A DNA stretch of 64,000 bases from Candidatus Margulisbacteria bacterium GWF2_35_9 (lineage in GTDB: Bacteria > Margulisbacteria > Riflemargulisbacteria > GWF2-35-9): assembly GCA_001783275.1 (NCBI GenBank), contig MFRH01000061.1, forward strand, positions 11,524 to 75,523, given 5' to 3'. Made by a program: the position numbers and the translations under genes. Positions 3 through 55,016 of this stretch are shown here, in pieces (position 1 is the stretch's first letter; each line of letters begins with the position of its first letter). Under the pieces are notes generated by a model. The model ran no database searches. It was not told the origin of the DNA and worked only from the letters and a program-made list of their open reading frames with translations.

Positions 3-1529
3 GTTGCGGTTGCAATGGGTGGGGGTGCATATTACATCAATATGCCTAAGATGACAAAGATCAACCTTACAGGTAAACTTAACGATTGGGTTTCGGCAAA
101 GGATGTTATCCTTGAGGTGCTTAGAATTATGAGCGTCAAAGGTGGTATAAATAAGATTGTCGAATACGGTGGAGAGGGGATAAAATCTCTTTCCGTTCCC
201 GAAAGAGCAACCATAACAAATATGGGTGCGGAGCTTGGTGCTTCGACTTCGATTTTTCCATCTGATGAGATAACAAGAGAATTTCTAAAAGCACAGGGTA
301 GAGAAAAAGACTTTGTACCACTCACCTCGGACGAAGATGCTGTTTATGATGAAATAATCGATATCGATTTAAGTACACTCAAGCCGATGGTTGCTTGTCC
401 GCACAGTCCCGATAACGTAAAGTCGGCTGCCGAAATTGGTAAAATTAAGATAGATCAAGTTTGTATAGGTTCCTGCACAAACTCTTCTTACGTTGATTTG
501 ATGAAGGTTGCTTATATTTTAAAAGGAAAAACTGTTGCAGAGAATGTAAGTCTTTCGGTAGCACCAGGCTCCAAGCAGGTATATAATATGCTTGCCTCAA
601 ACGGTGCACTATCGGATATTATAGCTAGCGGAGCAAGAATACTTGAATGTGCCTGCGGACCTTGTATAGGTATGGGACAGTCACCGAACAGTGCTGGAAT
701 CAGCTTGCGTACCTTTAACCGCAACTTCGAGGGAAGAAGCGGAACAAAGGATGCAGGAGTTTATCTTGTTTCTCCCGAGCTTGCCGCATATTCAGCCATT
801 ACAGGTTTTCTTTCCGACCCGACAGAATTCGGAACAGAGCCTGATATATGTTTACCAAAAGAATTCCTTATTAACGATAATATGATAGCTGCACCTGCTT
901 CACCCGAAGAAGCTGACAACGTGGAAGTGGTAAGAGGTCCGAATATAAAACCTTTTCCGAACAGTATTCCGCTTGAGGAGAGTATTGACGCAGAGTGTAT
1001 TTTAAAGGTTGACGACAATATTACAACTGACCATATAATGCCTGCCGGCTCAAAGATTCTGCCATACCGTTCAAATATTCCATTCCTTTCAAAATATTGC
1101 TTTGCTGTATGTGATGAGAAATTCGCAGAGCGTGCCAAAGAAAAGAACGGCGGTATTGTAATCGGTGGTGCAAACTACGGTCAGGGTAGCTCAAGAGAAC
1201 ACGCTGCACTTGTTCCGCTTTATCTCGGTGTCAAGGCGGTTGTTGCAAAGAGCTTTGCTAGAATTCATGCAGCGAATCTTATAAATGCTGGAATTATTCC
1301 ACTCACTTTTACGGATGAGAGCGATTATGACAGTATTTCGCAGGGTGACAACCTTAGTCTTTCAGATATTAAGAATGATATATTAAACAGTGATATAACA
1401 GTTCTTACCGATAAAACAATAGGAAAGAAGTTTACACTTAACATCAACCTTTCAAAAAGACAGCGTGAAATTCTTGTCGCTGGAGGTTTGTTGAATTATA
1501 CCAAGAAGGAGTCGAAATTTGAAAGATAA
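3..1529 (+). CDS. aconitate hydratase, C-terminal ~500 aa (5' end lies outside the window)
   Basis: Open frame from the window edge. Motifs CIGSCTNSSY, CACGPCIGMGQ and NRNFEGRSG are typical of aconitase family Fe-S cluster ligands and the substrate site. Confidence 0.8.
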   Translation, partial: VAVAMGGGAYYINMPKMTKINLTGKLNDWVSAKDVILEVLRIMSVKGGINKIVEYGGEGIKSLSVPERATITNMGAELGASTSIFPSDEITREFLKAQGREKDFVPLTSDEDAVYDEIIDIDLSTLKPMVACPHSPDNVKSAAEIGKIKIDQVCIGSCTNSSYVDLMKVAYILKGKTVAENVSLSVAPGSKQVYNMLASNGALSDIIASGARILECACGPCIGMGQSPNSAGISLRTFNRNFEGRSGTKDAGVYLVSPELAAYSAITGFLSDPTEFGTEPDICLPKEFLINDNMIAAPASPEEADNVEVVRGPNIKPFPNSIPLEESIDAECILKVDDNITTDHIMPAGSKILPYRSNIPFLSKYCFAVCDEKFAERAKEKNGGIVIGGANYGQGSSREHAALVPLYLGVKAVVAKSFARIHAANLINAGIIPLTFTDESDYDSISQGDNLSLSDIKNDILNSDITVLTDKTIGKKFTLNINLSKRQREILVAGGLLNYTKKESKFER

Positions 1530-1629
1530 ATCTTTCAAACACGGTTTTGTGCCTTTAATGCAAGAGGTGCATTAATCCGGTTATCGCCGGAACGGCACAA
1601 TTCCCGCTTTCGGCGGTAAACCGCCGAGG
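1521..1629 (+). promoter_or_regulatory. family-1 conserved structured element, copy 1; four hairpins, the last overlapping the icd Shine-Dalgarno
   Basis: Hairpins gaaagat/atctttc, ttaatgca/tgcattaa, ggaa/ttcc and cggcgg/ccgccg, plus ttgtgcc...ggcacaa long-range pairing. Same architecture as 7836-7962(-) with compensatory base changes. Confidence 0.4.
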
Positions 1630-1647
1630 AAAGAAAGGGTTTTAATA

Positions 1648-2986: not shown

Positions 2987-4591
2987 ATGAAAAAGAGAAT
3001 TTTGTTATTTTTACTTTTATTTTGTCTGATCTTTTCGGCGATGTCAGTTGGAATATCAGCACTAAGTCCTATTACGGCAGAAGGTAGTATTGCTGTTCCG
3101 ATTGATGGATTTGATACATATTACGGAAGCACTGCTGATGTTTATAATGAATCATATTATAACCAATTAAATGCAGAGCAGAAAAATGCTTATAATGTTC
3201 TGATAGGACTGCCAAAGAGTGATACTACGGTCACAATCGATTTAATTACTCCGATAACTTTTACAAGTCAAACAAATAGTCCAACCAGTACCGAAACTTA
3301 TGAAATGATGAACAAGGTTACGAATATAATACAACCGGCACTTAACGCTTTTTTAAAAGACTACCCGATTATTTTCTGGCTTAATTTAAGCGGTGGAGCA
3401 GGTTCAACAACATATTCAGTAAACTATTCGGGAAGCTTTTATTCAGGTAAATGGCACTGGGAAGTCACACAAATTTTATTTTACGCAGCGGTAGCTGATA
3501 AATACACACCAAATACTTCAACTTTTGTAAATTCTGTTACTAATGAAGTTGCTTCTTTTGAAACCAATTCGACATCAAGGTATGATATTTTAAAAGATAT
3601 ACATGATTATCTGTGCAGCACTGTAGTTTATGATTTAAACGCTGTATATGCACATGAGCCATATGGTGCGTTAGTGACAGGAAGAGCAGTCTGCGAAGGA
3701 TATGCCGAAGCATTCAAACTTTTATGTGACAGATTTAATGTTCCCTGTACATTAATAATTGGTGATGGAGTTACAAGTTCCAAAACTGAAGCACATATGT
3801 GGAACTATGTACAGATGGAAAACGGCAAGTGGTATGGTATAGATGTAACATGGGATGATCAAAGCATTATTCGATATGACTATTTCCTTGCAGGTGCCGA
3901 TACTGTTGCAACTTACTTTGGTACAAAGACCTTTTCACAGTCACATATTGAAGATGGTACTTTCTCATCAGGTTCATCAATGGAATTTGTATATCCTGTT
4001 TTAAATAGCACTAAATATGAGCAGCCGATTGTTGACCCTTGCGAAAACGGACATACGCCCGGAGAATGGGAAGTTACACTTGAACCGACTTATACCGAGG
4101 ATGGTCTTAAGGTAAAAAAATGTACTGTATGCGGGGAGGTACTAGAAAGCGAAGTTATACCCAAGCTTGTTTTACCTAGTGGTGACGCAGAACTTGTTAC
4201 AGGCAGTGAACTAATAATTAACAGTGGTTTGTTACTAGGACTTTCGGATAAAGTAACTTTATTATCTCTTACAAGTGAATTTGACGGTGATATTTCAGTA
4301 AAATCCTCGACAGGAAAAATACTGGAGGATGATGACACTGTTGGAACCGGTGCTGTCGTTGACGTTGGTTCTATTACCTATACTATAGTTATTTTAGGTG
4401 ACGTTGATGGTAGCGGCACAATTTCTTCCAAAGATTACCTGATGATAAAGAGAGCATTCCTAGGCACTCTTGCACTTACTGAAACACAGCTTAAAGCTGC
4501 TTGTATCGGTGGAGCGAATAAACCGACATCCTTGGATTATCTTAAAATCAAACGTCATTTCTTAGGTACTTATAATATTTATACGACGTAA
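2987..4591 (+). CDS. secreted transglutaminase-like (Cys protease fold) protein with two C-terminal dockerin-type repeats
   Basis: N-terminal signal peptide. CEGYAEAFKLLC...HMWNYV...GIDVTWDD matches a transglutaminase-like Cys-His-Asp core. GDVDGSGTISSKDYLMIKRAFLGT and a second DYLKIKRHFLGT repeat are dockerin-like. GGAGGTG SD. Confidence 0.6.
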   Translation: MKKRILLFLLLFCLIFSAMSVGISALSPITAEGSIAVPIDGFDTYYGSTADVYNESYYNQLNAEQKNAYNVLIGLPKSDTTVTIDLITPITFTSQTNSPTSTETYEMMNKVTNIIQPALNAFLKDYPIIFWLNLSGGAGSTTYSVNYSGSFYSGKWHWEVTQILFYAAVADKYTPNTSTFVNSVTNEVASFETNSTSRYDILKDIHDYLCSTVVYDLNAVYAHEPYGALVTGRAVCEGYAEAFKLLCDRFNVPCTLIIGDGVTSSKTEAHMWNYVQMENGKWYGIDVTWDDQSIIRYDYFLAGADTVATYFGTKTFSQSHIEDGTFSSGSSMEFVYPVLNSTKYEQPIVDPCENGHTPGEWEVTLEPTYTEDGLKVKKCTVCGEVLESEVIPKLVLPSGDAELVTGSELIINSGLLLGLSDKVTLLSLTSEFDGDISVKSSTGKILEDDDTVGTGAVVDVGSITYTIVILGDVDGSGTISSKDYLMIKRAFLGTLALTETQLKAACIGGANKPTSLDYLKIKRHFLGTYNIYTT

Positions 4592-6090: not shown

Positions 6091-7449
6091 TTAATTTTTC
6101 AATGATTGAATAGGAGCAGGAATACGTCCGCCTCTGTTAATGAATTTAGACGGAGAATAATTATTTATTTTCATAATCGGAGCTTCACCCCAAAGTCCGC
6201 CGTAGCAAATCATATCGCCCACCTTTTTGCCGACAGCAGGGATAACTCTTACCGCGGTTGTCTTGAAATTAACAACTCCGATTGCGATTTCATCGGCAAT
6301 CATAGCGGAAATTACGTCAGCCTCGGTATCACCGGGAACGGCTATCATATCCAGACCGACAGAGCATACCGCGGTCATCGCCTCCAGCTTTTCAAGAGTA
6401 AGGCAGCCTTTGTTGACAGCGTTTATCATACCTTCGTCTTCGGAAACAGGTATAAATGCACCCGACAAACCACCAACATGAGAGGATGCCATTACACCGC
6501 CTTTTTTAACCGCATCGTTAAGTAGAGCAAGTGCGGCGGTTGTTCCGTAAGCACCGCAGCATTCAAGTCCCATCTCTTCAAGAATTCGGGCAACCGAATC
6601 ACCGATTGCAGGGGTAGGTGCAAGTGACAAGTCGACAATGCCAAAAGGAACTCCAAGCCGTTTACTTGCTTCTCTGGCGACAAGCTGTCCGACACGGGTT
6701 ATCTTAAAAGCAGTTTTTTTAATTATTTCGGAAATTTCTGCAAGATCGGCATCCTTGTATTTAGCTATTGCACTTCTAACCACACCGGGACCGGAAACAC
6801 CCACGTTTATAACACATTCGCCCTCTCCAACACCATGAAAAGCACCGGCCATAAAAGGATTATCATCAGGTGCGTTTGCAAAAACAACCAGCTTCGCACA
6901 GCCGAAGGAATCGTTATCGGCGGTAAGTAAAGCTGCTTTTTTTATTATATGTCCCATTTTTTTCACAGCATCCATGTTAATGCCTGCTTTTGTGGTAGCC
7001 ACATTAACAGAGGAACAGACCATTTTTGTTTCGGCAAGTGCTTCCGGAATAGATTCGATAAGTGCGTCTTCGGCAGGAGTAGAGCCTTTTTGTACAAGTG
7101 CGGAAAAACCGCCGATAAAGTTTACACCAGTATCGGCAGCAGCTCTGTCAAGCGTTTTTGCCGACAGAACAAAATCGTCATATTTAAGGTTACCGCCAAC
7201 AAGCGATATCGGTGTAACCGAGATACGCTTGTTTATTATAGGAATACCGTATTGCTTTTCAATCTCTTCACCGACTTTGACAAGATTTTCTGCTTTTCTT
7301 GTGATCTTGTCGTAAATGCGGTCACTAAAAGTCTTTCCGCTTGCAGAAGCACAGTCAAGCAGTGAAATGCCCATAGTTATGGTTCGTATATCAAGATGAT
7401 CGGTTTGAATCATCTCAATTGTTTCAAGTATATCATTAGTATTTAACAT
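6091..7449 (-). CDS. UPF0210 (DUF711) family protein
   Basis: Family recognition of the [33 protein letters not shown]-terminus. The ATG at 7449 is preferred because GGAGG sits 7 nt upstream; the ORF-track start at 7461 is GTG without an SD. Confidence 0.8.
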
Positions 7450-7553
7450 ATTAACCTCCACGCCCTGCCGGGCACTAATAGTAATGTAAAATTCGTGGAG
7501 GAACGCGCCAACGTACCCCTATTTATTACATTTCTCACGCTAATATAATCCTT
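7450..7553 (-). promoter_or_regulatory. family-2 conserved 5' leader element, copy A (between the ACT gene and the UPF0210 gene)
   Basis: About 70 nt near-identical to 28065-28166(-): tagcgtga.aaatg ... ccacgaatttt.cattactatt.gtgcc.ggcaggg.gtg.agg, ending at the SD. Confidence 0.35.
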
Positions 7554-7823
7554 TTATATCCTATGCATGGAATTGAATATATCCTCGTGCATGGTGTGAA
7601 TCTTTAGATTGTTTGCACTTCCAAGTGTATCAAGCTTGTCGGTAAAAGCACCAAACTCAAGACTGAGTGTGCTTACATCAACAAGCATCATCATGGCAAA
7701 GTAATCCTGTAAAACAGTCTGAGAAATATCCAGTATATTTGCTTCGTACTGAGAACAAAAGGTAGAAACTTTAGCTATGATGCCTACATTATCCTTGCCC
7801 GTTACGGTTATAACAGCTTTCAT
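7554..7823 (-). CDS. ACT domain protein, UPF0237 family (89 aa)
   Basis: MKAVITVTGKDNVGIIAKVS... is a typical UPF0237 N-terminus. The start at 7823 has a GAGGAAAGGAA SD. The ORF-track start at 7850 lies inside the conserved upstream hairpin. Confidence 0.8.
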   Translation of the reverse strand: MKAVITVTGKDNVGIIAKVSTFCSQYEANILDISQTVLQDYFAMMMLVDVSTLSLEFGAFTDKLDTLGSANNLKIHTMHEDIFNSMHRI

Positions 7824-7835
7824 GATTTTATACAT

Positions 7836-7962
7836 TCCTTTCCTCGGCATTTATGCCGACAGTGGGAATTGTGCCGTTCCGGCGATAGCCGGATTACTGC
7901 ACCTCTTTGTAGTAAAGGCACAAAACCGTGTTTGAAAATTTATTTTCAAACTATCCATCCTT
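7836..7962 (-). promoter_or_regulatory. family-1 conserved structured element, copy 2 (5' of the ACT/UPF0210 operon)
   Basis: Reverse complement aligns with 1521-1629. The hairpins are kept by compensatory changes (ttgaaaat/attttcaa, ttactaca/tgcagtaa, cggca/tgccg). The last hairpin overlaps the SD. Confidence 0.4.
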
Positions 7963-8080
7963 AATTTGTTGTAATTCGTATTATTTTACTATACACTAAA
8001 ATCAATATGTTTGCAAGTGGAATAAACAGCAAAAAACGGCAGCTAATCGCTGTCGTTTTTGTGAATTATAAGGATTTTAT

Positions 8081-22824: not shown

Positions 22825-23526
22825 ATGAAGGTAGTATTTACTATTAATACAGATACTGATCTCAATGAAATAATCAATAAAGTAAAAAAATTTTCCAAAA
22901 AGGTTGCTAAAGAAGTATCCGAGGACGTTGCGAGTATTCGTGAACGTGATCCCGCAGCACGTAGTAATGCGGAGGTATTACTTTTGTATCCGGGTCTTCA
23001 TGCGGTTATTTCTCACAGAATTGCACATTTTCTTTACCATAAGGGGCATTATTTTATAGCAAGAACCGTAAGTCAGGCAGCTCGCAGCTTGACAGGTATT
23101 GAAATTCACCCTGCAGCAAAAATCGGTAAAGCTTTGTTTATTGATCACGGTAGTGCCGTTGTAATTGGTGAAACTGCTGAAATAGGGGATAATTGTACAA
23201 TATATCAATCAGTTACTCTTGGCGGAACAGGCAAGCATACAGGCAAAAGGCATCCAACAATCGGTAATAATGTTATGATTGGTGCAGGTGCAAAAGTGTT
23301 GGGACCGATTGTTGTAGGAAATAATTCGAAAATTGCAGCAGGTGCTGTTGTTTTAAAAGATATTCCGGAGAATTCAACAGCAGTAGGAATTCCTGCGAAA
23401 GTAATAAAACTGGATAACACTCGTATTGAAAACAATCTAGATCAAGTAAATATACCCGACCCTGTTGCACAGGAATTGTGCATATTAAAACAGAAAATTG
23501 CGGAATTGGAAGCGAAAATCAAATGA
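22825..23526 (+). CDS. cysE: serine O-acetyltransferase
   Basis: SAT N-terminal domain plus left-handed beta-helix hexapeptide repeats. Confidence 0.85.
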
Positions 23527-24569
23527 GATATAAAGCGAAGATAAATGCCGCCATTATTGTAGTGGCGGCTTTAATTATAATAACATCATGTTTATTTTTT
23601 TATGATAAATATACATCAGATACAGTTTCAGATTCTTTGGAATATTCATCAATAACGGATTCTGATGCAAGTAAAAGTATATCAGCAGATATATCAATGG
23701 ATATAAGCTCAATTGATGAAGTAATATCCGATATCGAGAATAGCGAACAGACATCAGCAATTGAAGTAGTTTTACACTATTCTGAGCAATTGGATCTGCA
23801 ACTTGATGCCTCTTATGCTATTGCTGCCTACACAGATGGCAGTATTATCTACAGCAAAAATGCTCTTACACGTTGTTACCCTGCATCATTAACAAAGCTG
23901 CTTACTGTAAGCACTGCAATAAGATACATAAAAAACGATTACATATTTAAAGTAGGTGACGAGCTGGATTATATTTTGGAAGGCTCATCGGTAGCCGGTT
24001 TAGAAAAAGGTGACAAAATAGATTTTCTTACACTGGTTGATGCTTTATTAGTTCCGTCGGGTAATGATGCAGCATATGTTATGGCAGTGGGTATAGGCAG
24101 ATTATATTCAGAAAACCCTAACATGCCTGTTAATGAAGCGTTATCGGTTTTTTTAACTTTGATGAATCAAACCGCTGATGATTTAGGTTGTACTGATTCG
24201 AATTTTGCTAACCCAGACGGTTATCATAATGCGAGTCACCATACAACAGCAGCGGATATATTAAAAATAGCTATACATACAAATAGTCTTGATATAGTTA
24301 AAAATTCAATAAACAAGAGCAAGGCAAGGGGAGTTTATAGCAATAAGGATGTTACCTGGATAAACACAAATTTATTGTTAAAGCAAGAAGACAGTCATTA
24401 TTATCAGTATGCCACAGGAATGAAAACAGGTGCGACTCCCGAAGCAGGTAAATGTCTTGCGGCGATTGCATACAAAAACGGTAAGGAAGTAATTACGATA
24501 ATATTAGATGCTTCTTCTGATGAAGCCAGATATAAAGATGCACTAACAGTTTTTAACGCAACACTGTGA
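23522..24569 (+). CDS. D-alanyl-D-alanine carboxypeptidase (S11, PBP5-like)
   Basis: SLTK (SxxK) motif, SGN and KTG-like motifs. Start ATG overlaps the cysE stop (ATGA). Confidence 0.8.
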
Positions 24570-24589
24570 TAAATAATTCGAAAGATTAA

Positions 24590-24630
24590 TCTTTCAAATA
24601 CGGTTTTATACCGTTCCGGCACAATTCCCG
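24590..24630 (+). repeat. degenerate partial copy of the family-1 element
   Basis: Keeps gaaagatt/aatctttc-aaatacggtttt and ccggcacaattcccg; the internal hairpins are missing. Confidence 0.3.
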
Positions 24631-24643
24631 ATATCATAAATAT

Positions 24644-25732: not shown

Positions 25733-25809
25733 GCGCTGTTAGCTCAGCTGGATAGAGTACCTGGCTACGAACCAGATGGTCGGGGGTTCGAATCCCTCAC
25801 AGCGCGCCA
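25733..25809 (+). tRNA. tRNA-Arg (anticodon ACG)
   Basis: Cloverleaf with 7-bp acceptor stem gcgctgt/acagcgc, anticodon loop cuACGaa, T-loop ggttcgaatcc and encoded CCA. TTGACA-17-TATTAT promoter upstream. Confidence 0.9.
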
Positions 25810-27467: not shown

Positions 27468-28064
27468 TTATCCGATAACTAATTCACCAAAAAATACAGG
27501 TTGATGAAAATCAGCATTTTCTGTATTAATCGGTGACCACATTCCATAATGTGGAATTTCTGTTTCGTCACCACATTTATAAAAATTACCGTAAAAAACA
27601 TCGCCTTTATTAAAATCACATTTACCAAATAAAGCATTTACCTGATCAAATGAGAAAAAGGTTTCGACTGTCCAGAATTCTTCCTGCTTTGTAGATTTTA
27701 CTTCGGGTAAGGCTGTTTTTTCATGAATATTTGTTTTGTTTTTACGGTCACTTCGTACCGATGCCAAAAACGCTCCGTTAGAATTCATTTCGAAATTCAA
27801 GTACAACGGACTTTCTTTGTTGAAACGTACAAAAAATTCAAGACAGCTGTCCTTATAAACAGGTTGTCCATATTCGGTGTAAATAGCTTTCGGATTTTTT
27901 TCGTAAGCAGTTAATTTTAAAGCAAAGCCTTTGTCTTTAATTAAAATTAACTGTCCAAAAGCTTTTGGCTCATATCCCTTAAGCCATTTATAACAATTTA
28001 TTTCCGCTTTAGGAACATCCGAAAAGTCAATTTTATCTTTAGTCAAAACATTATATACTAACAT
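27468..28064 (-). CDS. hypothetical cytoplasmic protein, CBM9-like/DOMON-like fold
   Basis: Weak family resemblance only. Preceded by the family-2 leader copy B. Confidence 0.35.
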   Translation of the reverse strand: MLVYNVLTKDKIDFSDVPKAEINCYKWLKGYEPKAFGQLILIKDKGFALKLTAYEKNPKAIYTEYGQPVYKDSCLEFFVRFNKESPLYLNFEMNSNGAFLASVRSDRKNKTNIHEKTALPEVKSTKQEEFWTVETFFSFDQVNALFGKCDFNKGDVFYGNFYKCGDETEIPHYGMWSPINTENADFHQPVFFGELVIG

Positions 28065-28166
28065 AAAAAACCTTCACTCCCTGCCAGGCACAAATAGTAA
28101 TGAAAAATTCGTGGAAGTACGTGCTTATGTATTTCTTTTTCTTGCATTTTTCACGCTACCTCCTAA
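28065..28166 (-). promoter_or_regulatory. family-2 conserved 5' leader element, copy B
   Basis: Aligns with 7450-7553(-). Contains an SD-led 31-codon uORF ending in overlap with the downstream start. Confidence 0.35.
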
Positions 28167-31272: not shown

Positions 31273-31622
31273 ATGGGGGCGTAAAGGTTTCGACGGGGAT
31301 TTTGAACCGATATAAGCGAGCAGAAGAACGTGTCTTCTTTAAAAAACGTAAATTAAATTTAAACGCTAACAAAAACGTTAAAGTTGCTGCCTAACTAGGC
31401 AGCCGTCGGGCCTGGAAGGACTACGAGCCAGGTTTTGGCGTCACTTAGTAGTGAACGTGAGCGGGCTTAAGCTTTGCTGCCTGCCATGAACTTATGAAGC
31501 TACCAAACAAGTCAGCCTGCTCTTTGGCGGTCATGCAAGGGAATCTAAACAAAGAGCTACGCTCGTAGAAAGTGCCGGCAAAAGGTTTTCGGACAGGGGT
31601 TCGATTCCCCTCGCCTCCACCA
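31273..31622 (+). ncRNA. ssrA: tmRNA (transfer-messenger RNA)
   Basis: 5' GGGGGCGUAAAGGUUUCGACGGGG. tag ORF ...A-N-K-N-V-K-V-A-A-stop. 3' ...GGACAGGGGUUCGAUUCCCCUCGCCUCCACCA forming a tRNA-Ala-like end. Intrinsic terminator at 31629-31670. Confidence 0.9.
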
Positions 31623-42517: not shown

Positions 42518-44414
42518 GAAAATTAAAGACAAACTAGAAGAAAAAATACCTGTATACGAAATAAAATACGAGGACAACACCACAGACTTTGAAAAAGATA
42601 TACTAAAAGAAAATCCACCCAAGCTGTCATATTTGACAAAGCTATTTAGATATGTTTTCTCATCTGCGAAATTAATGTGCGGTATTTTTTTAGGTCTAGC
42701 GATAATATTAAGTATATTACAACCGGTAACGGCATTTATCTGGGGAAGATATATCGACACCGCAAACGGTTATTCTGGTAAAATAGAGATTTCATCACTT
42801 CAATTAATTTCACTTATCAGCCTTGCGGTGATATATTTGGTTATTGGTTTTATCATTAATCTTTTAAATCGTTATCTTTATGGAGGAGAAGATATTGAGC
42901 GAATAAGTAAAGTTCAGGATCATCGCTTACAGGAAAAATTTCAAGCGAAGTTATTCAAAAAAATATCGATGTTGTACCCCGATTATATGGAAGTACCGAA
43001 AATCAACGATATTATAAATCGCAGTTTTGATTCAATGGGTGGTGAATGGAGTTCTCTTCAAAGAGGAGTTATTATCGAAGGGTATATTATTATTGCGAAA
43101 ATTATCTCTGTTATAATGGTTGCCGCTTCTTTGTATATTTTTAATCCGATATTATGCTATATAGTGCTGGTAGCACCGATACCAACTCTTTACACAACTT
43201 ATGTAGGAAACAAATTAAAATTTAAGTTTTCGCGTGATAACGGGAAGATCCTGCGTGAAGCTGATTATTATCAACGAGTGCTGCTTGGCAGTTCAGCAAA
43301 AGAAGTAAAAGCATTGAATCTATTTGATTTCTTTTTTACAAAGTGGAAAGTATTAGCGGATGATTATGTGGTGAAAGAAAAGAAAAACCAGCAGAATGTG
43401 TTTTTTCTCGGAATGGCAAGCGGCTTTGTATCAAATATTGCAAGTATTACAGCGAACGTTTTCGCGATTATTCTAATGACGCAGGGTAAACTATCGGTCG
43501 GTGCACTGGGTGCGGTCTTGTCATTGAATGGAACTCTCTTGAACAGCACATCCCAATTATTCAACTCAGTCGCAAACTTTGTATCTAAGAAAAACGAATC
43601 GGCACAGTTTTTCGAGCTTATAGATTTAAAAGAACAGATGTTAAAAGATGTTATGAAAAAAGAAACACCGACCATCGTGAATACATTGGAAGCTATGAAT
43701 ATATGTTACCGTTATCCTCTGACTGATGAATACAGAATAAGAAACGTAAATTTTACAATAAATAAAGGTGAAAAAGTTGCGTTTGTCGGTGAAAATGGTG
43801 CAGGTAAAACAACGTTCATAAAATTATTAATAGGAATGCTTGAACCGTCAAGCGGAGAAGTCCTGATAAATGGAATTGATGTGAAATATATTAATTTTTC
43901 AGAAAAATATGATTCTTTATCATATGTTTTTCAGGAACCAGCCAGATTTAACACATTTACAATCGGTGACAATGTTTTTTTCGGCGAAGTGAAGAGAGAA
44001 CGAAACGAAAGTCAGATAGACAAAGCCCTTAAATTTTCCGGTTTTGAAGGAGCAGAAAAAGATACGTTACTTGGTAAAGATATTGGTGGAACTGATTTAT
44101 CCGGTGGCCAGTGGCAGAAAATTGCTATCGCTCGTGCTTATTACAGAGACCGTGATTTTATTGTTCTTGATGAACCTACCAGTAATTTAGACCCGTTTGC
44201 CGAATCCGAAATTTTCAGAAAATACATAGCAATGACAGAAGGAAAGACTGTCATCATGGTTACACACAGAATAAGTGTCGCTTCACTTGCCGATAGAGTC
44301 GTTGTTTTCAAAGACGGTGAAATTGTTGAAGACGGCTCTCATGAAAAGTTATTATCAAATAATGGTGAATATACAAGGTTATATTCAACACAGGCAAAAT
44401 GGTATGACAGATAA
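42510..44414 (+). CDS. ABC transporter permease/ATP-binding protein (second half-transporter, heterodimer partner)
   Basis: GENGAGKTT, LSGGQWQKIAIARA, VLDEPTSNLD, VTHRI. 8-nt overlap with the upstream gene. Confidence 0.85.
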   Translation: MPKKIKDKLEEKIPVYEIKYEDNTTDFEKDILKENPPKLSYLTKLFRYVFSSAKLMCGIFLGLAIILSILQPVTAFIWGRYIDTANGYSGKIEISSLQLISLISLAVIYLVIGFIINLLNRYLYGGEDIERISKVQDHRLQEKFQAKLFKKISMLYPDYMEVPKINDIINRSFDSMGGEWSSLQRGVIIEGYIIIAKIISVIMVAASLYIFNPILCYIVLVAPIPTLYTTYVGNKLKFKFSRDNGKILREADYYQRVLLGSSAKEVKALNLFDFFFTKWKVLADDYVVKEKKNQQNVFFLGMASGFVSNIASITANVFAIILMTQGKLSVGALGAVLSLNGTLLNSTSQLFNSVANFVSKKNESAQFFELIDLKEQMLKDVMKKETPTIVNTLEAMNICYRYPLTDEYRIRNVNFTINKGEKVAFVGENGAGKTTFIKLLIGMLEPSSGEVLINGIDVKYINFSEKYDSLSYVFQEPARFNTFTIGDNVFFGEVKRERNESQIDKALKFSGFEGAEKDTLLGKDIGGTDLSGGQWQKIAIARAYYRDRDFIVLDEPTSNLDPFAESEIFRKYIAMTEGKTVIMVTHRISVASLADRVVVFKDGEIVEDGSHEKLLSNNGEYTRLYSTQAKWYDR

Positions 44415-44597
44415 GATGCTTATACTTGACTTAATAAACGTATGGTTATAAAATTAATGTTATATTTGTCATAGTGATGAATGCGATAAATATCTGAATT
44501 GAGTATCTTTTTAATGAATTTTCTTAATTTTTAATGGGAGGTATGTTATTATTGATAAAATAATTCATATATAATTTTTAAAATTTTATAAACTAAA

Positions 44598-44626
44598 GAA
44601 AACCCCATAGAGATTTTGTGGGGTTT
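44598..44626. terminator. bidirectional terminator
   Basis: aaaaccccat-agagattttg-tggggtttt. Confidence 0.6.
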
Positions 44627-44661
44627 TCCTTAGGGAGTTATAATGAAAAGTAGATAGTAAA

Positions 44662-46323
44662 TCAATTTTTAATAAATCTAACCATTCCGAATGTTGTGGG
44701 ATTATAATAGTCATACGTAGGATTAGACCAACATAAGACTGCATCAAGATCGGAATCATTCGTATCAACATTATTTAACACGAAATCCATACCGAGGTAA
44801 TTCAAGTTGGAGTAATTTATACCAAGTTTTTCCCATGATAATTGTAATGAAATCAAGTATCCCGATTCTGTTATTTTAAATGAAGCATCCTGCTCGTTTA
44901 GTGGAAAAGGTGTGTAAGCTCTTGTGTCTTGCCATTCTCCAATATACATAGAATCTATTCCATATTCACCTTTATCATTTATATATGGTGAAACAAATAT
45001 ACCGGTTGTAATTCCACTTTTATCAGTATCGAAATTTGGATTATATATAATTATATTAATACTTTCTGTCCACTTGTTTTCTCTTCCGGCTCCGCCCACC
45101 ATGACAATAGGATCATTAATATCAAACTCTATATATAACTTCTGTTCATCATATCGCATTGCTATTTTGCCATTATAATCATTTTTAGGTGTCAAAGCAC
45201 TTCTGCATATTGTACCAAAACGTTTTTTGGTTAAAGAATTTGATTTTTCGTCCATTAATATTTTAAAATTGCCTTTACTGTACTCACATAAATATTGCGA
45301 ATTATTCTCTAAACATTTCTTTATTACTTCTTTATTAATATCACTTAAATTTTTAGAACATAGATCCTTGCAGGAATATATTGTTCTAATATTTCTGTAA
45401 ATTTGGTCTTTCCAAAAGTTACAATCGTATTTTTGAATAACTTCCAATATTTCATCATTCAAAGGAGTAATACCTAATAACTCTTTTGACATTTTATTCG
45501 CGAACAGAATATCTTCAGAAAATCCATATAATTCTATTCGTTCATATAATATATCTTCATTTATATCTTCACGATATTTCTCTAAAATTAGTAATCCATC
45601 AACCAATGTCTTAAGATTATATTCAATAAAAGATTGTTTACTGTAATACCAATTAGATCCAATGCTGTCGAAAGTATGTCTTGCTGCGTGTTGTAACGCA
45701 AAAATGAATCTATCATATACATCACAAACATATATAGTTTTATTGTCTAACAAGAAAGGCTTTTTATGTAAAAAAACAGTTTCAATAAAATTATTACCGG
45801 TGCTTGTTTGAATAGAAAACCAACTTGCACTAACTGCCACATGCAGCTCTAAGTATATGTTCAATATTTTATCTTTTTTTAGGAATTTATCAATATGATG
45901 ATGACTCTTGTAACTTAAGTCTTTTTTAATAAGTTCAGGAGTTATTTCTTTTTCTCCATATTTATATTCTAATGATTTACAAGCATTACTAAATCTGACT
46001 ACATCACATGGCCGAATAAGTATATCAATATCATTTGACGGACGTTCATTCGGATTGGAATAAAGGTCGTAAGCTTCAGCAATACCTTTAAATAAAATAA
46101 TCTCTATATCCAGTGATTCGGCAATCTTGAAGAGCCTCTTTATTTCTTCTTTTATTTCAATCTGCCTATGTTTTTGTATTAATTTGGAGGTTGAGTTTTC
46201 ATTATTACTTTCTTTAGTTAAGAAATATTGAAGCCCAAAGAAAGTAGAATCTTTTTCAAGGTTTTCATCTTTAATATTTTGCTTGATTACTTTATTAATT
46301 TGGTCTAGAGTACCGTTAATCAT
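44662..46323 (-). CDS. nucleotidyltransferase-family protein (PF14907-like N-terminal half) with C-terminal beta-rich domain
   Basis: ILFKGIAEAYDLYSNPNERPSNDIDILIRP fits the 'uncharacterised nucleotidyltransferase' signature found in lasso/HPr-rel-A systems. Confidence 0.55.
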   Translation of the reverse strand: MINGTLDQINKVIKQNIKDENLEKDSTFFGLQYFLTKESNNENSTSKLIQKHRQIEIKEEIKRLFKIAESLDIEIILFKGIAEAYDLYSNPNERPSNDIDILIRPCDVVRFSNACKSLEYKYGEKEITPELIKKDLSYKSHHHIDKFLKKDKILNIYLELHVAVSASWFSIQTSTGNNFIETVFLHKKPFLLDNKTIYVCDVYDRFIFALQHAARHTFDSIGSNWYYSKQSFIEYNLKTLVDGLLILEKYREDINEDILYERIELYGFSEDILFANKMSKELLGITPLNDEILEVIQKYDCNFWKDQIYRNIRTIYSCKDLCSKNLSDINKEVIKKCLENNSQYLCEYSKGNFKILMDEKSNSLTKKRFGTICRSALTPKNDYNGKIAMRYDEQKLYIEFDINDPIVMVGGAGRENKWTESINIIIYNPNFDTDKSGITTGIFVSPYINDKGEYGIDSMYIGEWQDTRAYTPFPLNEQDASFKITESGYLISLQLSWEKLGINYSNLNYLGMDFVLNNVDTNDSDLDAVLCWSNPTYDYYNPTTFGMVRFIKN

Positions 46324-47353
46324 ATACTTCTACCTTCTTTAATTGATTTTTCAAATCATATCCTATGAATTGTAACTTTCTGAATTCACAATCGCCATCA
46401 TTACCAAGCGGGTCATTTGATATAAAATATGCAACCGCCATACAGCCTTTTTTACAATGACTTCTGATTATGCATTTCGAACAACCATAATCGATATTTT
46501 TTCTTTCGAGATTTATTGCTGCAATCTTCAACAAGTTTGATTCGAATTCATCTAATGAAAAATTAAATATATTACCTATACTATATTTACTATCATATAA
46601 TAGCTGACATGGTAAAATTGAACCATCGACTTTTATAGATATTTGCATTTCAGACTCAGTATCGTCAAGAGGACAATTTGAAGTACACAAGGGAGGAAAA
46701 ACTTTTAGTTTATACTCCTTATTTAATTTATCAATTAATTTAATAACAGATAGTTTTTGTGTTGCTGTTAAGCATTTTTGTTCCCAATCTTTTTCACCGT
46801 TTCCGGCACGGCTAATAAAAGCATAACTAGGTTTTATTCCTTTATTTAAAGAAAAAAGATAAAAGTTTTCTACATCTGATATATTAAGCTGTGAAATAAC
46901 CATCTTTAGGGTCATTTTTTTCTTATGTTTTCTTAACTCATCTATTAATTTAACTGTTTTACCGAAATTATTAGTTCCTCTTGTTTTTTTATTTATTTCT
47001 TCACATGAACCGTCAAGGCTTATCTGAAACGATAAATTATCAGTATTTATATATGTATTGATAATATTTTCATTAAAGATAGTCCCGTTTGTTATAATAC
47101 AAAATCTTAAGCTTGGATATTTCTCAGTTAATAAAGCAATCTTATCAATTTCGCTGTGAAGAAAAGGTTCGCCACCAGAAAAAACTATTTCGGTACAACC
47201 CAATTCTAACAATCTATTTATTATTAGATCAAATTGACCATATGATATTTCTTTTCTTATGTTGTTTAGCCCTGATCGGTTATAACAAGTATTACAGTTA
47301 AGATTGCATATATTTATTATTTCGATATAAGCTGAGTTAATTTTGATATTCAT
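46316..47353 (-). CDS. radical SAM peptide maturase with SPASM domain
   Basis: CNLNCNTC (CxxxCxxC). C-terminal Cys-rich CSKCIIRSHCKKGC auxiliary-cluster motif. Confidence 0.85.
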   Translation of the reverse strand: MNIKINSAYIEIINICNLNCNTCYNRSGLNNIRKEISYGQFDLIINRLLELGCTEIVFSGGEPFLHSEIDKIALLTEKYPSLRFCIITNGTIFNENIINTYINTDNLSFQISLDGSCEEINKKTRGTNNFGKTVKLIDELRKHKKKMTLKMVISQLNISDVENFYLFSLNKGIKPSYAFISRAGNGEKDWEQKCLTATQKLSVIKLIDKLNKEYKLKVFPPLCTSNCPLDDTESEMQISIKVDGSILPCQLLYDSKYSIGNIFNFSLDEFESNLLKIAAINLERKNIDYGCSKCIIRSHCKKGCMAVAYFISNDPLGNDGDCEFRKLQFIGYDLKNQLKKVEVYD

Positions 47354-47613
47354 GATTCAATAACTATCTTTTTTTCGATGAGTGAGTTAATGAAATCAGT
47401 CACATCATCTGATATTTCATTTGAAGTTATATCGTATAATTGTTTAAGATTCTTTATTATATCTTCCTTTTCGTTTATACCATCAATTTGCTTTAAAATA
47501 TCAGCTCCGCTTGCTTCAATAATATGTGTGTTTCCGGTATCGGGATCAAAAATAGCATAATTATCATTGTCGATTTCAATAAAATCAAACTTGTTATTCT
47601 TTACTAAACTCAT
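47350..47613 (-). CDS. PqqD family peptide chaperone (RiPP recognition element)
   Basis: 87 aa, PqqD-like three-strand/three-helix pattern. Overlaps both neighbouring genes. Confidence 0.65.
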   Translation of the reverse strand: MSLVKNNKFDFIEIDNDNYAIFDPDTGNTHIIEASGADILKQIDGINEKEDIIKNLKQLYDITSNEISDDVTDFINSLIEKKIVIES

Positions 47614-48055
47614 TATTTGTCGTCTCCTTTAAATATTTTTGTTTATATTTTTTATAAATATTACTTTCTATTGTTTTAAAATAATCATAGTCATTTCTGA
47701 CAAACTCTTTATTAACCTCTAAAGACATATTTATAAAATCAATATCAACACTAGGAATATCAAGCACTTTTCCTATAATGTCATTTTTACCTACTTCCTC
47801 TAACCTATAACAATTATCACCTTTACAGTAATATTTACCGTCTTTTATTTCAAGGATTCTATGTATTAACAAACCTTCATCGTTATACTTAAAAACAATC
47901 ACCGAACCTACTTCATATTCTTTCGCTTTCTTTATTAATACTTTATCTCCGTCCTTTAATACAGGAAACATACTGTTTCCGACTACTGTTATTTGAAACG
48001 AGTTTTGGGACTCTGTTTTATGCTTTAAAATGCTGAACATTATTTTGTTATTCAT
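47594..48055 (-). CDS. S24/S26 family (signal-peptidase-I/LexA-like) serine peptidase
   Basis: VVGNSMFPVLKDGDKVLIKK resembles the GDSMxPTL catalytic-Ser box. Confidence 0.5.
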   Translation of the reverse strand: MNNKIMFSILKHKTESQNSFQITVVGNSMFPVLKDGDKVLIKKAKEYEVGSVIVFKYNDEGLLIHRILEIKDGKYYCKGDNCYRLEEVGKNDIIGKVLDIPSVDIDFINMSLEVNKEFVRNDYDYFKTIESNIYKKYKQKYLKETTNNEFSKE

Positions 48056-48860
48056 AAGATAATTCCTTTATATAATCCAAAACAAAATTCATATCTGAAT
48101 ACCTTAGTATCTTACATTTTGATGATAACTTACTCAAAAATGATATATATTTTGAACTTACTTTATATGTTGTTGCGGCATTCTTCATAAGTAGCACTAA
48201 AGCTTTTGATGTAGGTATATCAACGACTTCATTTTTTTCATCAGTCCGTTCAATAAAAAAAATGTATCCTAGTTTCATTACATCAGGTGATAAGTTATCT
48301 GGATTAAAAATAAATCTCTGTATGGTAGGTGTATTTATAATTGTGGATATTGGAGGTTCAGTATCGTATTCTTTAAGTACCTGCATCCCTCCTGCTCTTA
48401 AATGAATAGGCACTTGGTAAGGATAAAAATCGAAGTTCTTCATATCTATATATGTACAATCATCTGTTGCATAATTTAAACCTTTTAAAGTAAGAAAAGC
48501 TGTAAGCGTAGTTTTACCTGAACTTGTAGAAGCAGCAAATAAATATGAATGATTATTATAATAAACACATCCTGAGTGTAGAGCAAAAATGTTTTCATTT
48601 ATAGATGCGTTTTCAAAAATGATATTTACTATTTCCTGTAGAGGATTATTTGTTTGTTTCTTTTTATCGTAATAAACAACATAATATTTATCATCATTAT
48701 ATTTTTCGACATTGATTTCAAAACAAGAAACATCATCCTGTATATCTGTATAAGTATATTTACCGTACAAATTGCCAATCATACTGTGAATTTCAATGCA
48801 ATTTGTATTTATCTTTATATATTTATATGAACATGGTTTCAGTAAATAAATACTTAACAT
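48048..48860 (-). CDS. HprK-related kinase (HPr kinase C-terminal-domain-like P-loop protein)
   Basis: HSGCVYYNNHSYLFAASTSSGKTTLTAFLTLKGLNYATDD parallels the HprK [25 protein letters not shown] segment. Confidence 0.6.
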   Translation of the reverse strand: MLSIYLLKPCSYKYIKINTNCIEIHSMIGNLYGKYTYTDIQDDVSCFEINVEKYNDDKYYVVYYDKKKQTNNPLQEIVNIIFENASINENIFALHSGCVYYNNHSYLFAASTSSGKTTLTAFLTLKGLNYATDDCTYIDMKNFDFYPYQVPIHLRAGGMQVLKEYDTEPPISTIINTPTIQRFIFNPDNLSPDVMKLGYIFFIERTDEKNEVVDIPTSKALVLLMKNAATTYKVSSKYISFLSKLSSKCKILRYSDMNFVLDYIKELSYE

Positions 48861-48987
48861 CTTCTACACCTTATGACATTATTTTTAAATTAAATGGATT
48901 ATAACACATATTTTTTTCAATTGCAATAGGATATTGAAATTAAACTTGCAAAAATCGACATTTTTAACAAAATAATGCATCAATGTA

Positions 48988-49015
48988 TTGACAATTTTAA
49001 ATTTTTAGATATAAT
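48988..49015 (+). promoter_or_regulatory. consensus sigma-A promoter
   Basis: TTGACA-16 nt-TATAAT. Lies inside the ORF-track ORF 48975.., which argues for the later start at 49053. Confidence 0.5.
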
Positions 49016-49052
49016 AAAATTATATAATAATAAAAAGGGGTGTATTAATGTT

Positions 49053-50081
49053 ATGAAATATATAAAAACACCTGGTGAAATATATGACTTATTTAAGCTA
49101 TTTATATACAATTTTAACAAAGAAGATTATGATAAAAAAATACTTAATGGTAATTCAAGAGAATTTGAGTTATTATGGAAAACGGTATTAAATGGTTCGC
49201 AAATAAACGATAAATTATATATGTTTTTTTATAAATTAAATAATAAATCAACTTTTATGACAGAGCATTTTTTTACTTCATTTTATAATGATTTTACTGA
49301 TCCAGATTTTTTTACAAATATGTGCGAAAGAATTCGTTCCATGGATTTATTTGTCGAAATATTAAAATACTATTTAGATAAAGATTCCTTTGAAATTCGA
49401 GATGTTTATTCTGCTGATTATATTTATGAATTGTCATTAAAAATTGATATACCCGATAGAATTAGACTTCAAATATTACATTTTAATTATAACAGGAATC
49501 AATATTCAGATATTTTAATTAATGAGTTAAAAGAAAAACATGAGCTTATAAAAAATTATTATTCCGAAAATTCTAATAAGATAGATGAAATTAAAAATTC
49601 AATGTTAAATGATCTAATACAATTGAATTTATGCAAGGAAATTGATTTAAGTTCAGAATATATGAATACTTATTATTATTCTGTTTCATTACTTCAAGAT
49701 AAATTCTATGCTTTTTTAAATAATCAAAATAAAGACTTTATTGTAATAGGTTACGATTCGATTAATAACTTAGATTATATTAACAAATTCAAAAATAATG
49801 TTAACATAAGTAAAGTTTCGAAAGCTCTTTCTGATGAATTTCGTATAATTATGTTAAATTTTATAAAAGAAATAGGCGAAATTACTACCTCTGATATTGC
49901 AAGAGAATTTAATATGGGACTTACAGCAATGTATTACCATTTAAGCATGCTTTATGAAGCTAAAATCTTAAGTACACGCAATGAAGGAAGGACGGTGTTT
50001 TACAAAATTAATAGTGAATTTCTAGAAATCTACTCGGAGTTTATTAAACGGTTCGCCTTGGAAGGAGGTGTAAATTTATGA
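49053..50081 (+). CDS. hypothetical protein with C-terminal ArsR-type winged-HTH
   Basis: ITTSDIAREFNMGLTAMYYHLSMLYEAKILSTRNEGRTVFYKI. Start at the in-frame ATG downstream of the promoter. Confidence 0.5.
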   Translation: MKYIKTPGEIYDLFKLFIYNFNKEDYDKKILNGNSREFELLWKTVLNGSQINDKLYMFFYKLNNKSTFMTEHFFTSFYNDFTDPDFFTNMCERIRSMDLFVEILKYYLDKDSFEIRDVYSADYIYELSLKIDIPDRIRLQILHFNYNRNQYSDILINELKEKHELIKNYYSENSNKIDEIKNSMLNDLIQLNLCKEIDLSSEYMNTYYYSVSLLQDKFYAFLNNQNKDFIVIGYDSINNLDYINKFKNNVNISKVSKALSDEFRIIMLNFIKEIGEITTSDIAREFNMGLTAMYYHLSMLYEAKILSTRNEGRTVFYKINSEFLEIYSEFIKRFALEGGVNL

Positions 50082-50200
50082 AAAAATGGTCTAAACCTAC
50101 CGTTATAACAATAAGCGAAAAAGAATTACAGGAAATAATATTAGTTCAAGCATGTTCTGGATATAAATGCGTATTGTTTTATGGACAAATTGAATTTTAA
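50078..50200 (+). CDS. candidate 40-aa RiPP precursor peptide MKKWSKPTVITISEKELQEIILVQACSGYKCVLFYGQIEF
   Basis: GGAAGGAGGTG SD 7 nt upstream. ATG overlaps the upstream stop (ATGA). Charged leader and Cys/Tyr/Gly-rich C-terminus. A strong terminator follows. Below the ORF-track size cutoff. Confidence 0.4.
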   Translation: MKKWSKPTVITISEKELQEIILVQACSGYKCVLFYGQIEF

Positions 50201-50235
50201 CATATTATTATGTTAAGTGAGATTGATATTAATAA

Positions 50236-50290
50236 CTGCACCTAATTATTTATGTAGTGTAAACATAAGTAATTAAGGTGCAGTTTTTTG
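50236..50290 (+). terminator. strong rho-independent terminator
   Basis: ctgcacct...aggtgcag stem with a structured internal loop, followed by TTTTTT. Confidence 0.6.
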
Positions 50291-50538
50291 TGTAAAATTT
50301 TATATCGAATTTTGGATTATATTAATTAAAATTGATGAATTCAATAGATTATTTAAGTCGAATAAAGTAGAATAATGAAATAGAGTTATTAAATATAGAC
50401 AAAATAATAATAAAATGTTTGGTAATATTTATATTAAACTAATTGTTGTAATTCAAATATAAATAGAGTATAATATAAAAAGATTTAAACCAACAACATG
50501 AATATAAATTAATAAATGCAAATTGGAGGTATTAGTAA

Positions 50539-50960
50539 TGTTAGCGAATAATAAAACTAAAATTTTATCAAACGGAAAAATGTTATTAAGACCATTTAAT
50601 ATGAATGATGTAGGTGATATGTATTGTAACTGGTCAAATGAAATGGGCCATGTATTTTTTCCTAAATATTCACTTCATATGAACTGGGAAATAACATTTG
50701 AAAGAATTAGGAATATAATCGATTCATATTTGTCAGAAGATACATATATATGGGCAATTGAATATAGTAATGGAGTTATTGGCTATATCGAAGTTGTTAA
50801 TATATATAATAATGATTCATCATGCTGTATTTATTACTATTTATGTTCTAAAGTTAATGATAAGATTTTTATAAATGAAGCTATAAGTTTAGTAGATAAT
50901 TATTTGCAAAATTCTATTGGTATAAATAATATTAAATACAAAGACATACTTAATACTTAA
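50539..50960 (+). CDS. GNAT family N-acetyltransferase (RimJ/RimL-like)
   Basis: LLRPFNMNDVGDMYCNWSNE-type N-terminus. Start chosen at the ATG with GGAGG SD. Confidence 0.55.
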
Positions 50961-51123
50961 ATTATATAAAGAATTAATTATTAGAAGAAAGTTTTGAAAG
51001 AAAAAGTATGCTTCCAAAAAAATATTCGAATATAACCTCATATACAAGAATAGCACAATTATTTTTATTTTGATAGTTTTAACAAATTTAATTATATAAT
51101 TATTAAAACATATAATTTAGTAA

Positions 51124-54999: not shown

Positions 55000-55016
55000 A
55001 TATTTATTTGTAATAA

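Follow-up and report, generated by a model that had tools for sequence, protein, structure and literature searches.

A probable non-autonomous interspersed repeat, with a conserved fold and its own Shine–Dalgarno sequence, in translation-initiation regions

We analyzed a stretch of 64,000 nucleotides (nt) of contig MFRH01000061.1 from Candidatus Margulisbacteria bacterium GWF2_35_9, called the window below, for a structured repeat which we name Family-1. One full copy of the repeat is found between the genes for aconitase and icd, a 398-aa NADP-type isocitrate dehydrogenase, and a second one precedes an ACT/DUF711 operon (Table 1). A preliminary description of this DNA had listed these two full copies and a degenerate third one, and all three were confirmed at their places, the true limits being slightly wider. 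The two full copies share 84.5% identity. In the window the 17-mer AAACACGGTTTTGTGCC has three occurrences at up to 3 mismatches, with 0.15 expected, and CGGCACAATTCCC occurs exactly three times. From end to end the element can be written as AGYNTGAAARAT...SD, where SD stands for a Shine–Dalgarno sequence.

The copy in front of icd is intercistronic. The aconitase stop codon TAA (1527-1529) falls within the loop of the first hairpin, P0, and aconitase therefore ends with the element-derived FER* and not with the GV* or GDR* of its relatives. At the second locus the homologues of the ACT protein are 89 aa long, so that the true ACT start is the ATG at 7823 directly 3′ of copy 2; the 98-aa ACT open reading frame (ORF) at 7554-7850 of the minus strand starts inside the copy and does not represent the true gene; a database entry gives 93 aa. 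No sense-strand sigma-70-like promoter or terminator was found inside either of the full window copies. Since a conserved promoter is situated upstream of copy 2 and none inside the element, the element must be part of the transcribed leader or mRNA. The decayed copy has kept P0 and the 3′ end TCATAAAT followed by ATG, and has lost P2/P3 and P4/SD by deletion. It is located 3′ of the stop codon of the ORF 23478..24569, and downstream there is only a terminator hairpin and no gene.

Table 1. Copies of the two repeat families, their parts and the neighboring native signals (window positions unless a locus is named; UTR, untranslated region; HMM, hidden Markov model)
Feature	Position	Strand	Context	Evidence
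Family-1 copy 1	1518..1647	+	between aconitase (15..1529) and icd (ATG 1648)	covariance model, 140.1 bits
Copy 1 P0	1518-1527/1530-1539	+		
Copy 1 P1	1547-1553/1594-1600	+		
Copy 1 P2	1555-1562/1568-1575	+		
Copy 1 P3	1576-1581/1586-1591	+		
Copy 1 conserved UUCCC	1601-1605	+		
Copy 1 P4	1610-1617/1620-1627	+		
Copy 1 element-borne SD region	1626-1639	+		
Native icd SD AAGGAG	1506..1511	+	within the coding end of aconitase; element TTG (1519-1521) now 7 nt downstream, in place of the icd ATG	
Family-1 copy 2	7824..7950	-	5′ UTR of the ACT (ATG 7823..7821, 89 aa)/DUF711 operon	129 bits
Copy 2 P0	7951-7942/7939-7930	-		
Copy 2 P4	7859-7853/7850-7844	-		
Copy 2 element SD GAGGAAAGGAAUG	7845-7833	-		
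Native ACT SD AAGGA	7958..7962	-	element TTG now 8 nt downstream of the native SD	
Native sigma-70-like promoter TTGCAA-17-TATAGT	7988..8016	-	upstream of copy 2; kept in relatives without the element	
Decayed Family-1 copy	24577..24641	+		46.3 bits, E = 1.7e-07
Family-2 copy	7453..7541	-	between ACT stop plus native SD (aaaggattatat) and DUF711 ATG (7449)	repeat search of the window
Family-2 copy	28069..28157	-	native AGGAGG immediately upstream; own SD GTGAAGGTT, then TTTT, then ATG of ORF 27468..28064(-)	
Further Family-2 copy	L036 639-727			HMM
Further Family-2 copy	L020 5350-5438			HMM
Further Family-2 copy	L078 6043-6151			HMM
Further Family-2 copy	L064 525-633			HMM
Further Family-2 copy	L035 2041-2118			HMM
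Further Family-2 copy	L056 6165-6271			HMM

To find further copies an IUPAC pattern based on two cores of the element was searched against 185,579 species-representative genomes. The strict pattern gave 33 matches in 32 loci, all of them within four metagenome-assembled genomes (MAGs), namely Clostridiales UBA12491 (17 loci), HGW-Firmicutes-21 (13 loci, HGW-21 in the following), GWF2_38_85 and an Oscillospiraceae MAG (one locus each). With a slightly looser pattern 38 loci were obtained from JGI metagenomes; nine were chance matches, rejected by the covariance model, and the 29 true ones belong to known or further hosts (e.g., L044, L045, L046, and L062). The covariance model itself, built from 32 copies, gave 81 matches, 63 of them distinct, among them copies missed by the pattern and divergent subfamilies. 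The DNA fetched for this analysis holds about 30 copies in the UBA12491 population and about 19 in HGW-21, and an unbiased sample of about 70 kb, the window plus 8 kb upstream, holds the two full copies and the relic. No Family-1 match came from viral contigs or from the records of phages and plasmids. The preliminary description had left a choice between a regulatory leader and a dispersed structured repeat, and these counts speak for the latter.

The predicted fold comprises a 5′ hairpin (P0), a three-way junction in which P1 (UUGUGCC/GGCACAA) carries the arms P2 and P3, and a 3′ hairpin (P4) abutting the purine-rich SD. Compared with dinucleotide shuffles the folding energies correspond to z = -5.9 for copy 1 and -5.1 for copy 2. 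Compensatory changes in the stems, reported earlier from the two copies, hold for P0, P4, and one position of P2; the P2 of copy 2 (TTACTACA/TGCAGTAA), however, contains one uncompensated A.C. The 63 distinct copies allowed a more thorough comparison. In these, 95.2% of the stem cells are paired (81.2% in shuffles), 247 cells show a double change (83 in shuffles), and the covariation score is 0.384 (0.150 in shuffles), while with slid controls at most 55.5% are paired. The covarying stems are P0, P2, P3, and P4, and of P2 and P3 several wholly different yet complementary versions are present within one genome. P1 and its flanks (ACGGUUUUGUGCC ... CGGCACAAUUCCC) show almost no variation, which is partly imposed by the search pattern, and are of little weight either way for pairing. 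Because the copies are paralogues, the double-change counts exceed the number of independent events. Among the mismatches of the family G.U (33 cells) and A.C (35 cells) are equally frequent. G.U would be expected to prevail if purifying selection acted on an RNA at each locus; the equality fits a neutral decay of single copies combined with a structural selection on whichever copies propagate, and agrees with RNA as well as with single-stranded DNA as the folded species.

The preliminary description could not match the element to a known riboswitch family, and in agreement with this Rfam 15 gave no match for the window at the gathering score nor for either copy at E values up to 10, where only noise appeared, and 19 further loci with about 25 copies gave no match at the gathering score. 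Hammerhead and other small ribozymes as well as tRNA mimicry were rejected, because the junction strands are too short, a T-loop or CCA register is missing, and Rfam has no match. Also rejected was a sigma-54 promoter in the core GGCAC-N-GC, as the -12 GC is A/G polymorphic across the copies.

The preliminary description had alternatively suggested a riboswitch or gene-specific leader of icd and of the ACT operon. We therefore compared the orthologous loci of relatives, fetching for ACT the loci whose proteins are 80-89% identical to the window ACT. The element is absent at the orthologous ACT loci L001, L002, L003-L005, and L039 and at the orthologous icd loci L038, L039, and L040, and the covariance model gave no match on these eight related contigs (L001-L005 and L038-L040). 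L001 is syntenic with the window and has the same ECF-transporter gene, terminator and promoter. Its ACT site reads aaggatggataatATGaaagc, with the native SD aaggatggataatATG and without the element, whereas the window reads aaggatggatag(TTTGAAAAT...125 nt...TATAAAATC)ATGaaagc. At the icd site aconitase and icd overlap in L038 of HGW-21 (aaaggagacagaTGATGgct), and the fully syntenic L039 reads aaagggggtttaatcaATGgca, both without the element; L040 has an unrelated 86-nt spacer. The empty sites at ACT and icd show an intact native arrangement of SD, spacer and ATG. In both window copies the native SD is retained, and the 7-8 nt from it to the TTG of the element equal the distance from SD to ATG at the empty sites. 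The empty sites of the relatives together with the retained native SD exclude a leader conserved for regulating icd or ACT/DUF711. In the simplest reading of these sequences, an insertion at the junction of spacer and ATG would account for the filled and the empty sites.

The wider family agrees with this result. Copies do not always precede icd or UPF0237-type genes, a context which had been proposed as a check; the genes downstream are unrelated, about 40 in all, and HGW-21 has at least 19 copies with none at icd. As a side observation, the spacer between ACT and DUF711 in L001 (2771-2888) measures 118 nt compared to 28 nt in L039 and holds TCTGAAAAT...ATTGTGCC...GACACAATT; it may be a decayed Family-1-like copy at another start, and is below the threshold of the model.

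The repeat had been thought to land just 3′ of genes. We find it instead directly 5′ of start codons, in the spacer from SD to ATG, in the sense of the gene and equipped with an SD of its own. An ORF of at least 60 codons opens 10-46 nt past the core in 43 of 54 evaluable copies, compared to 22.7% at random positions in the same DNA, and the frame of this ORF is closed just upstream in 40 of the 54 (7.8% at random positions). For about 80% of the copies a real start codon follows 0-15 nt after the end, in a gene of the same orientation; the exceptions are mostly upstream units of tandem arrays or are followed by another partial copy. In the downstream proteins the Pfam domains start as early as residues 1-5, and the ATG past the element is therefore the true N-terminus. 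At the 5′ side an SD-like 4-mer is present at -20..-4 of the element TTG in 39 of 60 copies (21% of random windows), and the first TTG of the element stands 5-9 nt past the native SD, where the native ATG would be. The two window copies are on opposite strands 6 kb apart and each is co-oriented with its gene, showing that the polarity follows the gene and not replication.

The downstream genes encode an SRAP peptidase, UppS, FlhB, FlbD, RNase III, CoaE, UxaC, a UvrD-like helicase, a POR gamma subunit, a class-I glutamine amidotransferase (TrpG/PabA-type GATase), an AccB-like biotin-carrier protein, an MFS transporter, an alpha-amylase, an AMP-ligase, a GltB-like protein, an anti-sigma-type kinase, an EngB-like GTPase, and an M16 peptidase, besides icd and ACT. 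A functional theme is not apparent in this set, which extends over flagellar export, RNase III, CoA, cell wall, TCA cycle, DNA repair, transport, and others.

The SD of the element, GGAAAGGA, is part of the 3′ tail. The tail has the consensus GGAAAGGAATGGTCATAnnn followed by the native ATG, placing the substitute SD about 10-13 nt upstream of the ATG; its conserved part is GGAAAGGAATGGTCATA, then about 3 variable nt and the ATG, and GAAAGGA, about 10 nt before the ATG, is a 7-nt match to the Firmicutes anti-SD. Most copies have an in-frame ATG within GGAATGG of the tail. Two of the three frames of the element open with TGA or TAA. A conserved reading frame from the element TTG was not found, the frame-0 stops ranging from codon 3 to beyond codon 45, and a leader peptide or a coupled ORF of the MIRU type was rejected because of these scattered stop positions.

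A second repeat, Family-2, occupies the same niche in the window. It is 89 nt long, unrelated in sequence to Family-1, and present in two window copies; an HMM revealed six more copies in the loci (Table 1). The pattern is again a native SD upstream and, at the 3′ end, an own SD which is followed after 3-7 nt by the start codon. The copy at 7453-7541 ends in its own SD GTGGAGGTT, with which an internal CCTCCAC can pair, and the corresponding empty DUF711 site in L039 reads ataaaggtgttaaattATG. The fold of Family-2 is not significant (z between -0.1 and -1.6). The two families are nested in each other: in L036 a Family-2 copy is located in the SD-to-ATG spacer of a Family-1 copy and is followed by the ATG, and in L078 a Family-1 copy is found 3′ of the SD of Family-2. 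This reciprocal nesting argues for the SD-to-ATG spacer as a target or safe harbor in its own right, and the tandem arrays, truncated copies and deletion relics described below likewise mark it as a common niche for insertions. The 5′ 12-mers of both families are alike (AGTTTGAAAGAT at 7952-7941(-) and AGCGTGAAAAAT at 7541-7530(-)), and in both an NTG, with an A after it that creates an immediate TGA in one frame, takes the place of the displaced start codon. One machinery recognizing both families might account for this likeness, as might a convergent imitation of a gene start (ATGAAA).

Several arrangements look like signs of a family that was once mobile and is now decaying. In HGW-21 copies are lined up head to tail with a period of about 121 nt (L006, L013, L037, and L010), and in L022 and L026 a 3′ fragment of an older copy lies just upstream of the full copy; an apparent 17-nt duplication in L022 and an SD-like flank in L026 are such fragments. 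P2/P3 or more have been lost in the decayed window copy, in L065 6767-6895 and in L064 9272-9365, and the latter two, in which P2/P3 or the whole junction is gone, still precede genes. P4 is absent in an HGW-21 subfamily, and a variant subfamily has AAUCGUC and an extra hairpin in place of UUCCC. A single site could be compared between two element-bearing species. There HGW-21 has a full copy (L015 6226-6342) and UBA12491 has ATGAAAAATACGGAGCGATAT (L036 1657-1673), a 21-nt sequence that looks like the relic of a full copy; it creates an alternative upstream ATG for its gene. One copy, L043 4512-4680(-), is the only one with a 13-nt direct duplication, AGGAAGGTTGATA, on both sides, and has the native hypC SD and spacer in place of the usual element tail. 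The duplication is probably due to local conversion or recombination within SD homology, and this suggests that the right junction can form within such homology.

We consider it likely that Family-1 represents a non-autonomous interspersed repeat, about 120-130 nt long and restricted to one lineage, that occupies translation-initiation regions. The element would spread by inserting at start codons or a few nt ahead of them, without a target-site duplication. An insertion at this position would be tolerated because the element brings a replacement for the ribosome-binding site which it displaces. The TGA and TAA openings in two of the three frames would close an upstream ORF running in, and translation of the downstream gene would then depend on the SD of the element, which in the predicted ensembles is about half sequestered, by P4 or by an AUUCC-GGAAU pairing. 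Selection on the fold probably serves chiefly the propagation of the element itself or its recognition by a factor acting in trans, and to a lesser degree a function at the single loci, because G.U and A.C are equally common and copies with an SD tail and no junction still precede genes.

A number of observations weigh against this interpretation. All data come from MAGs and metagenomes, and at least one contig (L016) looks chimeric across the repeat. In this UBA12491 contig the left flank of the copy at 6323-6458 is the hypF/hypC site (L043 4512-4649) and the right flank the amidotransferase site (L051 2091-2227), with the switch point inside the repeat, in P3; either the assembly went wrong across the repeat or copies have recombined with each other. 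Target-site duplications were not found (similarity of own flanks 5.6, of cross-copy flanks 5.3), and terminal inverted repeats are likewise missing, all inverted repeats being internal stems. Copies at different loci share at most 94% identity (median 67%). Neither a recent transposition event nor a very recent burst could be seen; at the icd site of the species of the window no strain polymorphism was observed, all five contigs looking alike and carrying the copy. We thus infer mobility from presence and absence between species alone. A transposase, recombinase or reverse transcriptase partner was not found among the loci, and their comparison with each other showed no other multi-copy sequence. 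The adjacency to start codons could in part reflect selection on survivors and not targeting alone. Finally, the near-invariant core, the predicted bistable pairing (a GG-CC extension of P1 or AUUCC-GGAAU) and the locus-specific compensatory variants of P3 would fit a regulation at the host level as well.

The absence of duplications and terminal inverted repeats also means that the label REP/MITE-like, used in the preliminary description, does not apply to Family-1.

A more far-reaching proposal would be that at least two unrelated families of this Clostridia lineage actively home to the spacer between SD and start codon and that the junction core of Family-1 is a functional module. It could be a guide or recognition structure for a start-site-specific insertion machinery, or a mobile sensor-like switch, a portable riboswitch, which puts dozens of unrelated genes under one signal. 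We regard this proposal as doubtful.

It is unlikely, in our view, that Family-1 is a true cis-regulatory RNA, that is a riboswitch or a site for a global RNA-binding protein, whose junction senses one signal and gates the SD, the dispersed copies forming a large translational regulon which was maybe built by spreading. Such a regulon would explain why a near-invariant core is flanked by covarying stems and why the SD is always directly 3′ of the fold. The predicted ensembles contain two mutually exclusive pairings of the conserved UUCC, either with the GG of ACGG, extending P1, or with the GGAAU of the SD tail, enclosing P4, and the SD has a predicted probability of about 0.47 of being unpaired. 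A switch that gates the SD by the pairing of UUCC is thus conceivable, but it has no support from covariation and is contradicted by the subfamilies without UUCCC and by the copies without junction in front of genes. A precedent for coordinated regulation by dispersed copies is given by the REP2 repeats of Neisseria (PMC3184786). The element is, however, absent at the orthologous loci of close relatives, the downstream genes have no common theme, and derivatives without P2/P3 or without the junction persist before genes. Furthermore G.U is not favored over A.C, a second and poorly structured family fills the same niche, the AAUCGUC subfamily has replaced UUCCC together with an extra hairpin, and there is no match in Rfam.

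We think it quite unlikely that the repeat is a miniature derivative of a known transposon, either of a palindrome-associated IS200/IS605-type element (Y1 HUH, single-stranded DNA) or of a transposable element of the miniature inverted-repeat class (MITE) with terminal inverted repeats, the DDE transposase that moves it being encoded at another place in the genome. Such an origin would agree with the hairpins close to either end (P0 and P4), the missing target-site duplication and the strict strand polarity, and one machinery could recognize the similar 5′ termini of both families. Yet terminal inverted repeats are lacking, the sequences of P0 and P4 are unlike, with P4 missing in the HGW-21 subfamily, no fixed target of 4-5 nt is present immediately 5′ of the element, and the polarity goes with the gene rather than with the replication strand. 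When the loci (about 0.6 Mb) were compared all against all by BLAST, neither a longer element with these ends nor a co-repeated ORF appeared, and phage, plasmid and viral collections have no match. Lastly, that the element is not mobile at all, but an ancestral leader of many genes which was deleted in the relatives examined, is very improbable, because, although internal deletions and relics do exist (window 24577-24641 and L036), the eight empty sites show a normal SD, spacer and ATG without a relic, the filled sites keep the native SD as an extra, displaced copy, tandem arrays and reciprocal nesting with Family-2 occur, and different species have the element at different genes.

Among known systems REP/BIME, ERIC, BOX/RUP, Correia, and MITE-like repeats are multi-copy, transcribed, intergenic and hairpin-forming like Family-1. 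Most of these are found 3′ of genes or are unplaced relative to starts. REP/BIME are GC-rich imperfect palindromes of 20-40 nt associated with RAYT, whereas Family-1 is about 125 nt long, AT-rich, built around a three-way junction and located 5′ of genes. MITEs have terminal inverted repeats and/or target-site duplications, both of which Family-1 lacks. With palindrome-associated elements derived from IS200/IS605, Family-1 would agree in the missing target-site duplication and in having hairpins near both ends; these hairpins are unlike, however, P4 is optional, there is no fixed target, and no TnpA partner was seen in the loci fetched. Like translational riboswitches, the element places a structured domain, whose core is invariant, directly 5′ of an SD which, according to the predictions, can be sequestered by an alternative helix; it differs in having no conserved gene association or conservation at orthologous loci and in its dozens of copies before unrelated genes. 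Integron attC sites differ as well, since the copies are single and beside housekeeping genes on many contigs, and a GTTRRRY core site is not visible in the alignment.

The closest parallels are two repeats of other bacteria. MIRUs (Supply et al. 1997, as presented in PMC12548453) are described there as short interspersed or tandem repeats, apparently mobile, which keep expression by a short internal ORF translationally coupled to the gene at a spacing of -4 nt (PMC12548453). Family-1 resembles them in its location at start codons, its co-orientation, its sometimes intercistronic position (the icd copy) and its tandem arrays. It has no conserved ORF or stop position and carries its own SD instead, it has a covarying three-way-junction fold, and its hosts are Clostridia MAGs and so belong to another phylum, which sets it apart from the MIRU as described. 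The REP2 (CREN) of Neisseria and the IR sequences of Borrelia plasmids are 120-150 bp long, are located immediately upstream of ORFs and have stem–loops, a ribosome-binding site and a promoter, REP2 also an ATG (Delihas 2011, PMC3184786). Length, location directly 5′ of ORFs, internal stem–loops, ribosome-binding site, lack of terminal inverted repeats and tens of copies per genome are common to these repeats and Family-1, and like REP2, whose ribosome-binding site and ATG are joined to the downstream ORF, Family-1 joins its tail to an ATG and the gene. In contrast to the promoter-bearing REP2 and Borrelia IR, the window copies of Family-1 have no promoter-like site and are situated in operons or 3′ of native promoters. 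REP2 has two stem–loops and Family-1 four hairpins, three of them in the three-way junction with its invariant core, and the sequences are not similar. To sum up, Family-1 works like MIRU and REP2 but belongs to neither, and it lacks the defining properties of riboswitches, MITEs, REP/BIME, and attC sites.

Some further features of the window should be mentioned. A tmRNA gene (31275-31622(+), 167 bits) and one tRNA gene (25733-25806(+)) are unrelated to the repeats. The ORF at 2987-4591(+) codes for a protein which combines a transglutaminase core with a type I dockerin domain and so points to a Clostridia host that has a cellulosome. The region 44001-56000 has a G+C content of 0.235-0.29 compared to about 0.35-0.39 elsewhere, with a local reversal of the GC skew at 44-48 kb, and may be a horizontally acquired island.

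Repeats settling at start codons without killing the gene are known as MIRUs from mycobacteria and as REP2 from Neisseria, and Family-1 adds an independent case from Clostridia. New are the spare SD in place of the coupled ORF of the MIRU, the covarying RNA or single-stranded DNA fold and the second family nesting in the same niche. Such elements have practical consequences: in comparative screens they look like riboswitch candidates, they can give rise to chimeric MAG contigs, and the in-frame ATG of the tail (GGAATGGTCATAAATATG) shifts annotated starts, resulting in false N-terminal extensions of 4-9 aa (MVINM..., MPRKGMYKIM...). Taken together, the own SD, the fold and the shared niche argue that the spacer between SD and ATG is a recurrent safe harbor, or a real target, for small selfish elements.

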